A DNA stretch of 64,000 nucleotides from a bacterium (GTDB lineage Bacteria; UBA8248): assembly GCA_965204535.1 (NCBI GenBank), contig CBDBEV010000001.1, forward strand, positions 832,001 to 896,000, in the 5' to 3' direction. This document shows positions 18,780 to 43,430 of the stretch, piece after piece. Within the stretch, counting starts at the first letter, position 1, and each line of letters starts with the position of its first letter. Below the pieces are notes generated by a model. It saw only the letters and a list, made by a program, of their open reading frames with translations. It was not told where the DNA came from and did not search any database. Made by a program: the position numbers and the translations under genes.

Positions 18780-19560
18780 AACGCCTCTTTCCTCACCCTG
18801 AGTAGCCGCCGAAGGTAAAACGTGACTGAGAAAGGAGCGTTTGTATCGAAGGGCGAGGGGCTCGCGTCGTGGCGAGAGGGCATCCTTCGATACGCGGCTT
18901 CGCCGCTACTCAGGATGAGGCGATGTGGTTTTGTTCGTCATTCCGGCGCATGCCGGAATCCAGAGCGGACGGGCATGGAAGATATGTGGGAATAAGGCAA
19001 GCCGGTGTAGGTTGCCTGGTTCCATGAACACTGGTGCTCTCATTGATTCTGGATTCCGGCTTTCGCCGGAATGACGGCCAAAAACGAACCATGGGCGGTC
19101 ACGGGGGCAGGGCGGACACATAGTCAGACATATATGTCTGACCCCTACGGGTTCGTTTCGATTTTCGTGGCTTGTAGGGACAGGTCGCGACCTGTCCTTG
19201 TTATTCTCCTCATCGACCGAAATAAATCGCCGTCATTCCCGCATCGTGGTTCGGTCTCAATGGGTGCAAGGGGGTGTAGGGGTCGCATATATGCGACCCG
19301 CATCGTGGAGGCGAAAGAAAGGGCCGCATATATGCGGCCCCTACACGCGGGTGGTGGCCTTTACAGATTGCCGAAAGCCGGAATGGCGGCCACGGCGAGC
19401 AGGGCGGCCACAGGGGGCCGCCCCTACGGGTTTGTTTCAATACACGCGGTTTCCGTAGTAGGGACAGGCCCCTGTGCCTGTCCGAGGCCCCTGTGCCTGT
19501 CCGAAACCCCCGCGCCTGTCCGAAACCCCCGCGCCTGTCCGAAACCCCCGCGCCGCATGT
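18780..19560. repeat. Palindromic repeat mosaic 1 (CTGAGTAG/GTATCGAAGG-type, CGTC-type, GTAG-type, 19-bp tandem)
   Basis: CGTCATTCCGGC..GCCGGAATGACG doublet 18936-19076; GTAGGGACAGGTCGCGACCTGTCC; GTAGGGGTCGCATATATGCGACCC; 19-bp tandem 19467-19554. Confidence 0.9.
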
Positions 19561-19712
19561 GCTCATTCGATTGCTTATCCCGCGGCATGAAAGCTATGAT
19601 ACCCTCGCCTTCGCGCGTACCCACGCAATCACTGTTTTCCGGTAACGGTTCAGGGTTTCCTGAAAAAGCCCGCCGGATTGTTGAAATTTTACCTTCTTTT
19701 ATGGAGAAAATC

Positions 19713-20621
19713 ATGGAAAAAAGAACACTCGGTCGCACGGGTCTCGAAGTCACGGTCATCGGCTTCGGCGCCATGACCATCGGCGGCGTGTTCGGCCCGG
19801 TGGATGACGCAGAGTCCAACCGCGCCCTGCACGCGGCCATCGATTCGGGCATGAACTTCATCGACACCTCGGACGCCTACGGCGCGGGCCACAGCGAGAC
19901 CGTCATCGGCAAGTTCCTGAACGAGCGGGCCGACCGCGCCGACATCCTCATCTTCACCAAGGGCGGGAACGACATGTCGACCGGCCGGCGCAATTTCAAT
20001 CCCGATTACATCGCGGGCTGCCTGGAGGGGAGCCTGAAGCGCCTCGGGATGGACGTTATCGACTACTACCAGCTCCACAACCCGAACGTCGACAACATGG
20101 CGGCCGAGGACAGCTACGCGCTGCTCGAGAAGGCCAAGGACGACGGGAAGATCAGACACTGGGGCGTTTCGATAAACACGGTGGAGGAGTGCAACCTCGC
20201 CGCGGAGCAGGACAAGCCCGCCACCATGCAGATGGAGTACAACGTCATCAGCCAGGAGGCGGCGCCCGCCTTCGCCCGCGCGCGCGCGGCGGACGTCGGC
20301 GTGATTTCCCGCGTGCCGCTCAAGCGGGGCTTTCTCTCGGGCCGCATCGACGAGGCGTTCGAGTTCGCCGAAGGCGACCGCAGAAAGGGCATCCTCTCGC
20401 CCGAGAACATCCGCAAGTTCCAGGCCCAGCTCGCCCGCACCCGCGAGGTGGCGGAGAATCTCGGGGTTTCGGCGGCCCAGGCGGCCATCCGCTTCTGCGT
20501 CTCGAACGAGAACGTGAGCTGCGTGATTCCGGGCATCCGGACGCCCGAGCAGTCCCGGCAGAACGCCGCCTGCGGCGAACCCCTGCCCGCCGAGGCCGTG
20601 CGGAGGCTGCAGGAGGTCTAG
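19713..20621 (+). CDS. Aldo/keto reductase
   Basis: RTLGRTGLEV, FIDTSDAYGAGHSE, SLKRLGMDVIDYYQLH, VIPG; the upstream extension in the ORF track is repeat-derived. Confidence 0.92.
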   Translation: MEKRTLGRTGLEVTVIGFGAMTIGGVFGPVDDAESNRALHAAIDSGMNFIDTSDAYGAGHSETVIGKFLNERADRADILIFTKGGNDMSTGRRNFNPDYIAGCLEGSLKRLGMDVIDYYQLHNPNVDNMAAEDSYALLEKAKDDGKIRHWGVSINTVEECNLAAEQDKPATMQMEYNVISQEAAPAFARARAADVGVISRVPLKRGFLSGRIDEAFEFAEGDRRKGILSPENIRKFQAQLARTREVAENLGVSAAQAAIRFCVSNENVSCVIPGIRTPEQSRQNAACGEPLPAEAVRRLQEV

Positions 20622-20629
20622 AAGGCGCG

Positions 20630-21035
20630 GGGGGTCAAACGCGAGTGAGGCGCGAGGAATTGTAGGGACAGGTCGCGACCTGTCCGGGGACCTTGAAAAC
20701 CAACCCCCCCTACCCCCCCTTGACAGGGGGGTATAAAAAGGCGATGCGCCCTCGCCGGGCTGAGGGGGTTTTGCTTTTTCTTGCCCCCCTGTTAAGGGGG
20801 GGTAGGGGGGGTTGCCTTTATCCCTTGAGGAGTGGGTGGAAGAAAAACCCCGATGGGAGTGAATTTCTTCTGCTGAGTCGCGGTTGAGCTTTGCCTTTGT
20901 TCGTCATTCCGGCGTATGCCGGAATCCAGGGACTTTGCTTTTGCATTTGTCTTTTCGCTTTATCGTTTTTCTTGGTTGTCCTGCGATTCGGTGTTCCCGT
21001 CTGCTCTGGATTCCGGCTTTCGCCGGAATGACGGC
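20630..21035. repeat. Palindromic repeat mosaic 2
   Basis: GTAG palindrome at 20662; CCCCCCTACCCCCC-type element 20695-20824; CGTC doublet 20902-21033. Confidence 0.9.
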
Positions 21036-21112
21036 AGTGGTCAATGGCGAGCGAGGAGGGGGTTTTCATCAGCCCATAAGGTGCGATTTCATCGTTCAAA
21101 AAGGAGACGAAA

Positions 21113-21514
21113 ATGCCGGTAACGAATTGGGACGAACTGCCTGTGAAGGTGCCGTTCCCGGGGGTGGAAGTGGGCCTCGTGAGCGGGAAGCACTGCATGA
21201 TCAGCTACATCCACGCGAAAGGCGGGAATTCCACCCGCAGGCACCACCACGAGGCGGAGCAGATTTTCTGCCTCATCAGCGGCTCCGCCCGGGTGCAGGC
21301 GGGGGACGACCCGGTGGCGGTGCTGAAGCCGGGCGACGTCTGGTACGTGCCGCCGCACACCGAGCACCAGGCGGACTACCTCGAAGACACGGTGGCCTTC
21401 GAGGCCGCCGGCCCCATCCGCCTGGACAATTTCGCGGGCTACCTGCACGAGGACACGCATTTCGTCGACCAGCGGGACCTCGCGGCGGACATGGAGCGGG
21501 AGCAGGCCGGGTAG
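21113..21514 (+). CDS. Cupin domain protein
   Basis: HHHEAEQ and PGDVWYVPPHTEH cupin motifs; AAGGAG RBS. Confidence 0.88.
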   Translation: MPVTNWDELPVKVPFPGVEVGLVSGKHCMISYIHAKGGNSTRRHHHEAEQIFCLISGSARVQAGDDPVAVLKPGDVWYVPPHTEHQADYLEDTVAFEAAGPIRLDNFAGYLHEDTHFVDQRDLAADMEREQAG

Positions 21515-21521
21515 GGGAGAT

Positions 21522-22046
21522 CGTAGGGACAGGTCGCGACCTGTCCCTACAATTGACCCCGGAATGATGACTAAAGGCGAACCATGGACGGCAAAGGGGG
21601 TCAGGGCGGCCACGGGGGGCCGCCCCTACGGGTTCGTTGCGATTGTGTAGGGACAGGCCCCCGTGCCTGTCCGAGGTTGCGACCTGTCCTTGCGTATTTC
21701 CTCATCGCCCGAGATAAACCACCGTCATTCCGGCGAAAGCCGGAATCCAGAGCGGACGGGTATGGAAGAAAAGCTGGAATGAGGCGCTCCGGTGCAAGTG
21801 ACCAGATTCTATGAACTCTGGTTCTCTCATCGGTTCTGGATTCCGGCATTCGCCGGAATGACGAACAAAGCCGAATCGCATCTGTAGCGGACAGGCCCCC
21901 GCGCCTGTCCGAGGCCCCCGTGCCTGTCCTGACGAAGGACAACCACGGGAATGGATGTCTTCTATGCGGGCGGCCACGGGGTCAGACATATATGTCTGAC
22001 CCCTACTGGAAAACCAACCCCCCCCTACCCCCCTGACAAGGGGGGC
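21522..22046. repeat. Palindromic repeat mosaic 3
   Basis: Perfect GTAGGGACAGGTCGCGACCTGTCCCTAC palindrome 21523-21550; CGTC doublet 21723-21863; GTCAGACATATATGTCTGAC; partial CCCCCCTACCCCCC element. Confidence 0.9.
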
Positions 22047-42893: not shown

Positions 42894-43430
42894 CCTGTCC
42901 GAAGTCGTGATTTGTCCTATCGGTCGGATTTGAAATTCACTTCCCCCTTGAGTGGACTGTTGAAAAAGCATTTATCAAAAGAATAACCCCCCCTACCCCC
43001 CCTTGTCAGGGGTCAAACGCGAGTGATGAACGAGCGTTTGCATAAGCCATTAACGAGAAACACATCGCCTTGCAAAACCTCCCTCTTCGGTCGGTTTTGA
43101 CCCCTGACAAGGGGGGTAGGGGGGGTTGCTTTTCCAGTCGAGGATGATCACCACCGTCATTCCGGCGGCGGGATTCCGTCTTGCTGCGCATTGGTGTAGG
43201 GGTCGCATACATGCGACCCACATCGTAAAGGCGAAAGAAAGGGCCGCATATATGTCGGACATATATGTCCGACCTACACGCGGGTGGCGCCCTTCGCATA
43301 TCGCCGATTGCCGGAATGACGACCGAAGGAAGTCCACGGGCGGCCACGGGGGGCCGCCCCTACGGCGATACACGCGATTTTCGTAGGGACAACCCCCCGT
43401 GGTTGTCCCAGATCCCTGTGCCTGTCCGAG
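42893..43430. repeat. Palindromic repeat mosaic 9
   Basis: CCCCCCTACCCCCC element ~42985-43135; GTAG doublet nested in CGTC ends 43155-43321 (paralog of 19231-19390); GTAGGGACAACCCCCGTGGTTGTCCC. Confidence 0.9.

Follow-up and report, generated by a model that had tools for sequence, protein, structure and literature searches.

The closest described systems are those in which a RAYT (REP-associated tyrosine transposase, also called TnpA-REP) acts on REPs (repetitive extragenic palindromic sequences). TnpA-REP of Escherichia coli cleaves inverse REPs at C|TAC, and the cut leaves a 3' end able to prime synthesis, nick-primed synthesis being the model of the authors (PMC3333891); cleavage rules of TnpA-REP have also been reported (PMC8266576). 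Changes of REP type have been described at fixed places. For instance, paired stem changes were reported at orthologous RAYTs (Nunvar 2010, PMC2817692), and the REP orthoswitch, in which one REP class gives way to another at a given site without loss of symmetry, was described for group 3 together with a speculative mechanism (Nunvar et al. 2013, PMC3686654). REPINs (REP doublets forming hairpins) of group 3 likewise change type at orthologous spaces, and it was suggested that RAYTs modify or replace them (REPORTH, 10.1101/2024.10.14.618302). Group 4 RAYTs are described as not linked to REPINs (10.1101/119735, 10.1101/2021.07.10.451892), and as flanked by low-copy 16-mers only (Bertels 2017). 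Here we analyze GTAG-REPs in a 64,000-nucleotide stretch (the window; G000:C2:832001-896000) of the genome GCA_965204535.1 from an uncultured bacterium (G000, 4.56 Mb in two contigs), where hairpins, or heads, stand behind a GTAG foot and in part of the cases on top of the remaining half of another head. Letters name the head classes, each of which is defined through window coordinates in Table 1.

Two composite elements of the window (19085-19239 and 21578-21731) have the left flank, the tail-to-tail linker and the right flank in common and differ in their hairpins, as the original prediction had read and as sequence comparison confirms. A G head on an I-type 3' half occupies 19110-19148 (minus strand), and the matching place, 21604-21629, holds a plain H head; at 19174-19197 there is a plain A1 head, and the matching 21647-21689 holds A2 with the A1 loop and 3' arm behind it. 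In another case, the head at about 19321 was rightly said to recur half overwritten at about 43241, where both flanks are retained and 13 extra bases are present. The idea of a conserved GTAG scaffold serving as a general chassis does not hold, as the full 155-nt scaffold has two copies in the genome and elsewhere partial matches only; the genome-wide conserved part is the GTAG foot.

In the source genome, 882 of 18,880 GTAG tetramers (4.7%) are followed by a hairpin, against 0.7-0.9% for five control tetramers, a rate about five times as high. The resulting genome-wide catalogue holds 648 exact GTAG heads in 16 counted classes plus rarer ones; thus the multiple heads of the original prediction are real, and its "at least six" was too low. 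The GTAG tetranucleotide foot of a short stem-loop (by computed folds), the high copy number with inverted doublets, and the intergenic placement, as judged within the window, all agree with membership in the GTAG-REP superfamily. Three G-C pairs open the stem of the C, D, H, I, and K heads and two that of the A and B heads, and double-foot A1 and K heads are common. Measured against local GC skew, the C and D heads prefer opposite strands genome-wide (54:24 and 19:41), therefore C/D doublets are oriented. An Rfam scan of the window gave no match. Two further abundant hairpin families, of a CGTC type (144 heads) and a C-rich type (241 heads), interleave with the GTAG REPs. The spacer of the I-head doublet G000:C2:974643-974714 is inverted relative to the related genome G002, with both flanks retained.

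The 3' arm of a head occurs within 22 nt after 74 of the 648 exact heads, compared with 2.0% of random windows and with 12 of 648 heads on the outer side of the foot, which served as control. The same arm is repeated in 26 of these stacks and another arm follows in 48, one of them probably by chance. Among the cases listed the order is constant, namely the GTAG foot, a complete new hairpin, then the old loop and 3' arm; seemingly reversed cases are, as judged by eye, double-foot REPs overwritten from the other foot. Head F lies on a C, D, or E half in 20/20 copies and head G on an H- or I-like half in 30/30, these old halves being mostly 13 nt long, with degenerate ones assigned by eye. Stacking is specific to GTAG hairpins: the two other hairpin families of similar abundance yielded 0/144 and 2/241 stacks, both of the latter being G-run artefacts. 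Where a 5' arm on the same strand follows a head (60/648), it is in most cases the inverted doublet partner and uninformative on polarity. The foot-side junction of the stacks is fixed and lies where E. coli TnpA-REP cuts (C|TAC). The added length tracks the donor and not the target, being +13 for F and +24 for T on three head classes, and 4-11 nt of the old head are lost in the RAYT loci of the genus; these lengths come from individual alignments, the RAYT-locus survey and by-eye counts, not from a genome-wide junction table. The foot is doubled on three heads. Inspection by eye found 43 heads with an atypical foot-side start, of which 37 are stacked and about 20 have extra foot-side bases that pair with bases past the hairpin. 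Copying of the new head from the other end of the same doublet is ruled out for F and G, the partners of which are C/D and A2.

The stacked hybrids are no assembly artefact, because 13 of the 23 genus genomes carry head F, three of them with free double-foot copies, whereas 0/28 other genomes of the class have it, and contigs from public runs, which may be the source sample, match 19120-19298 and 21525-21631 without difference. No piece of these contigs spans the 19122 junction by 31 letters. The public runs gave no informative joint for head polymorphism between strains, the contigs ending at repeats; the best independent carrier among them is a sponge metagenome, and runs with small word shares were set aside as evidence.

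Orthologous sites were compared in G002 (1.6 of 4.4 Mb compared, 95.4% identity over 1.22 Mb aligned) and in G011 (0.4 Mb compared, 91.0% identity over 0.27 Mb aligned). Behind one and the same foot at window position 43383, three species carry three heads, B in the source genome, A1 in G002, and A2 in G011, with the flanks kept. At 20662 the source genome has A1, G002 has S on A1 (+20 nt), and G011 has B; at 19455, A2 with a doubled foot in the source genome corresponds to one foot and B in G002. Outside the window, G002 has a T head (+24 nt) at C2:796444, at C2:927349 the partner head is retained and the other head is A1 in G002 but A2 in G011, and a stack at C2:796258 is present in G002 and G011 and collapsed in the source genome. 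Different heads thus stand behind the same foot, which is not point divergence alone. The RAYT genes of the genus provide a further kind of fixed site, since the outer flank of their internal REP is unique coding DNA. Overwrites inside these genes start directly behind GTAG, adding 15 nt in two genes of G004 and 24 nt in G014, and in one of two paralogues of G013 a stack of +24 nt introduces a stop codon. Mixed stacks account for 13 of 183 heads and occur in 9 of 30 genus RAYT loci, two of which are the same gene, so that some heads are counted twice. The orthologues and the RAYT-gene overwrites together support the proposal that heads are written into existing REP sites and that stacked halves record successive events, and in-place head replacement at existing REP sites is very probable.

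We found one Y1 transposase in the source genome, intact and away from the window (C1:983506-984099). It is a RAYT of 198 aa with the motifs NHVH, WQ, and YIRNNP, an in-frame REP doublet with stacked halves between HUH and Tyr, and flanking REPs; these are traits of subclass 2.4, as are the long and double-foot REPs of this genome. PF01797 matches above its cut-off, whereas NF047646 reaches 63 bits (cut-off 80) with the match split by the REP insert. The structure model has a mean pLDDT of 71 with the insert disordered, and its fold matches ISDra2, IS608, and the TnpA-REP structure 4ER8 (E 7e-6 to 3e-5), although a PDB sequence search gave no match. Among the best 60 tblastn matches listed for further copies in the source genome, only the REP-encoded insert was matched. 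An IS200/IS605 insertion sequence was rejected on the single copy and on NF033573 (31 bits, cut-off 55), and REPIN-RAYT groups 2 and 3 were rejected since the motifs and the internal REP fit group 4. By its motifs, the gene is assigned to TnpA-REP subclass 2.4, or RAYT group 4. The expectation of a RAYT gene in the lineage was correct beyond this genome, RAYT-type genes being present in 18 of 23 genus genomes. On a tree of genus sequences with head labels set by eye, the twenty intact RAYTs among the 30 loci fall into five clades, and every clade has a distinct class of internal head (4 changes, the minimum); in this sense basic head classes do follow RAYT clades.

Several observations concern the RAYT genes themselves. 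The G002 RAYT genes C1:1659164-1659736 and C1:1662414-1662911 are missing at the orthologous places of the source genome (C2:933914-933978 and C2:931147-931349), and at one of the two sites only a double-foot REP is left. The RAYT of the source genome sits with a REP-bounded upstream piece resembling the second G002 RAYT locus. From this placement, REPs seem to be sites where RAYT genes are relocated or lost, in contrast to the usual description of RAYTs as immobile. The RAYT L040 (G034:C1:484942-485445) groups by its N-terminal half with the I-head clade and by its C-terminal half with the A1-head clade, a chimera that likely arose by recombination at the internal REP. A 65-nt tandem repeat of 3.3 copies lies directly downstream of the RAYT gene at locus L001 (L001:1020-1233). 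Small unannotated open reading frames with a hydrophobic N-terminal stretch occur between REP clusters at L001:2400-2699 and, downstream of a cupin gene, at L007 and L012; that of L001 had no NCBIfam match.

Table 1. Features of the window (minus or plus strand where assigned).
Position	Strand	Feature	Remark
18936-19075, 20696-20815, 20903-21033, 21723-21863		Non-GTAG hairpin families	
19085-19239		Composite element 1: two REPs placed tail to tail, and their flanks	Paralogue of 21578-21731
19093-19107	-	Decayed, older 3' half of an H-like head	Third stack layer
19110-19122	-	13-nt 3' half of an I-type head	Loop and 3' arm, overwritten
19123-19148	-	Head G, GTAG foot and complete hairpin	Over I head
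19174-19197	+	Plain A1 head	
19276-19344		Head-to-head doublet of D (+, 19276-19299) and C (-, 19321-19344)	Un-overwritten paralogue of 43196-43277
19402-19427	-	Head H	
19455-19554	+	Doubled foot (3 extra nt), A2 head (19462-19483)	Four stacked 3' halves, 19-nt period
19713-20621	+	Aldo/keto reductase family gene	Host gene, ortholog anchor
20662-20685	+	Head A1	
21113-21514	+	Cupin-like gene	Host gene, anchor; weak matches only
21523-21550		Double-foot A1 REP	Foot at each end
21578-21731		Composite element 2	Paralogue of 19085-19239
21604-21629	-	Plain H head	
21647-21689	+	A2 head (21651-21672)	Stacked on A1 loop and 3' arm
21884-21929	+	S head on A2 half	S is A2 core plus one foot-side base pairing with a base past the hairpin
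21968-22006	-	G head	On 13-nt 3' half of H
43196-43277		Doublet with C end overwritten by head F (43254-43277, -)	Remnant 43241-43253
43383-43427	+	B head and A2 half	

We infer that the RAYT is the writer of the heads. In our preferred reading, to which we give a probability of about 0.55, a subclass 2.4 RAYT starts the overwriting with a nick on the complementary strand at C|TAC, followed by primed copying. The RAYT would nick the inverse strand in CTAC and hold the 5' end as a phosphotyrosine, the free 3' end would be trimmed slightly within the foot-side arm of the old head, by a few bases, and a host polymerase would extend this end on another REP, often itself a stack, sometimes folding back and thereby giving a perfectly symmetric new stem; the new end would then be rejoined at the foot. 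Later, slippage between direct repeats would collapse stacks to a clean replacement or grow arrays of the same type, and the collapse step is seen in the stack at C2:796258. Joining of a copied CTAC to the cut TAC would give the doubled feet, and these together with the extra foot-side bases fit nicking, copying and re-joining. Further support for this reading comes from the polarity and excess of stacks, their restriction to GTAG heads, the head changes at orthologous sites and inside RAYT genes, the donor-dependent added lengths, and the C|TAC cleavage by the E. coli enzyme.

Several results weigh against RAYT-started overwriting or narrow its share. Among 209 sites of the source genome compared with G002, the nearest relative, 157 are without a common outer flank and 27 are identical; the remaining 25 show differences, for the most part point changes, and include at least four non-REP hairpins; since 157 of 209 lack the outer flank, whole-element gain and loss dominates site turnover and in-place change is a minority route. 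The sole RAYT of the source genome belongs to the A2/B clade, whereas heads of the C, D, E, H, and I classes take part in many overwrites; the F, G, S, and T heads are the basic internal head of no RAYT in the 30 loci. No RAYT was found in G011 with the query used, yet swapped heads are present there. Fixed C|T cutting at the foot-distal junction is unsupported, as no C|T or C|A rule was seen by eye, and the replication-strand bias of stacks is not significant (19 vs 31, p=0.12, with patchy GC skew). In 80 distant group 4 RAYT loci, mixed stacks were found in 0 of 252 heads, with a head library limited to the same locus, and same-type halves number 8 vs 5 on the control side. In these distant loci several symmetric heads occur next to one another, some of which match H, I, and K exactly, and head diversity is therefore general to the subclass; mixed stacking may be special to the source genus. 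Many G stacks, finally, copy fewer events, as they are clustered on a flank tree and the nearest neighbour is another G stack in 20 of 30.

Among the alternatives, a host-only copy-choice process is unlikely in our view. Here the replication fork would stall in a hairpin, switch by microhomology to another REP as template and return at the common foot, with quasi-palindrome switching perfecting the stems and the RAYT merely supplying abundant donors. Template switching is described as creating or perfecting hairpins (PMC8794818, PMC7202029), and the fold-back-like extra bases, the distal junction without a dinucleotide rule and the head swaps of G011 agree with it; however, it would have to leave two equally abundant hairpin families of the same genome without stacks, and repeated independent return at a foot of 4-5 nt within unique coding DNA is demanding for microhomology. 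Decidedly improbable is a history in which a few ancient chimeras spread via whole-element copying and ordinary gene conversion between long paralogous repeats, with stacks as debris of local duplication. Un-overwritten paralogues with both flanks in common, which exist for 7 of the 20 F copies and 11 of the 30 G copies, favour writing in place instead. The 50-nt flank trees, weak evidence at this length, require 18 changes for F (16-20 with shuffled labels) and 19 for G (20-30 when shuffled). The scatter of F, no more clustered than the shuffles, means that F arose many times, against the chimera history, whereas the clustering of G accords with that history and indicates that G partly spread as ready-made composites. 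The long flanks common to the composite elements, the age of head F with its presence in 13 genomes, the same arm repeated in 26 of 74 stacks, and the predominance of whole-element turnover also speak for it, but it is already weakened by RAYT-gene overwrites without long outer homology to any donor, and a single donor class lies on unrelated head classes with equal added length.

More improbable still is cutting and joining by the RAYT without synthesis, whereby an excised single-stranded head would be inserted by two strand transfers. In vitro, TnpA-REP does recombine REP substrates that are single-stranded (PMC3333891, PMC8266576), and the F-on-C and G-on-I junctions lie at C|A and C|T; however, junctions of the S, U, and T types have no final C, such insertion would leave the old arm whole whereas part of it is gone in the genus RAYT loci, and the extra paired bases point to synthesis. 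Returning to RAYT-started nicking and copying, a bolder extension, which we put forward as tentative and doubtful, makes the RAYT a site-specific DNA rewriter that nicks the foot, copies any nearby REP, obtains symmetry by fold-back and seals at the foot. If this were true, it would provide REP orthoswitches and paired stem changes with the mechanism they lack, the enzyme would rewrite its own gene and, at the internal REP, exchange gene halves, and F, G, S, and T would be "passenger" heads that spread only by overwriting others.

Compared with known systems, the claim of an undescribed system falls away: this is a GTAG-REP/TnpA-REP system of subclass 2.4, the REP/RAYT system is known, and type change at orthologous places has already been published; what is new are the frozen intermediates. 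Our literature search, which did not extend to subscription papers, found no description of polarised half-head stacks. Subclass 2.4 of Quentin et al. (2018, PMC6006769) shares the motifs, the in-frame REPs between HUH and Tyr, and the long and double-foot REPs, its proteins being about 194 aa with NH[IFV]H, WQ, and YIxNNP (198 aa, NHVH, WQ, and YIRNNP here); their text covers in-gene REP insertion and double-foot REPs and not polarised stacks or head replacement, although Figure S10 may show stacks. The GTAG and CGTC superfamilies (Di Nocera et al. 2013, PMC3733652) form the same head-head and tail-tail dimers, heterodimers, and CGTC mosaics, but the hybrid dimers are two whole REPs of different families, without half-head stacks in the text covered. 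The REPs and BIMEs (bacterial interspersed mosaic elements) of E. coli (Ton-Hoang et al. 2012, PMC3333891; PDB 4ER8) have the same GTAG foot and an enzyme whose HUH-Y1 fold is matched by the structure model; however, BIME amplification concerns whole units of one family, whereas the overwrites described here exchange part of a head for a single head from another family. Bertels 2017 describes low-copy 16-mers for group 4, in contrast to hundreds of copies here. The RAYT of this genome, of group 4, is accompanied by hundreds of REP doublets, a trait reserved for groups 2 and 3 in the REPIN literature cited here; the system works like a REPIN system without being group 2 or 3. The orthoswitch and REPORTH studies describe the same class change at a fixed place as end states, whereas here intermediates with polarity and junctions are present. 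How one REP class replaces another with both arms changing together has been a question ever since the discovery of RAYTs, and this lineage preserves the intermediates; from the fixed foot-side junction, the defined donors and targets, and the donor-specific lengths, the exact substrates of an in vitro test and its predicted products can be specified.

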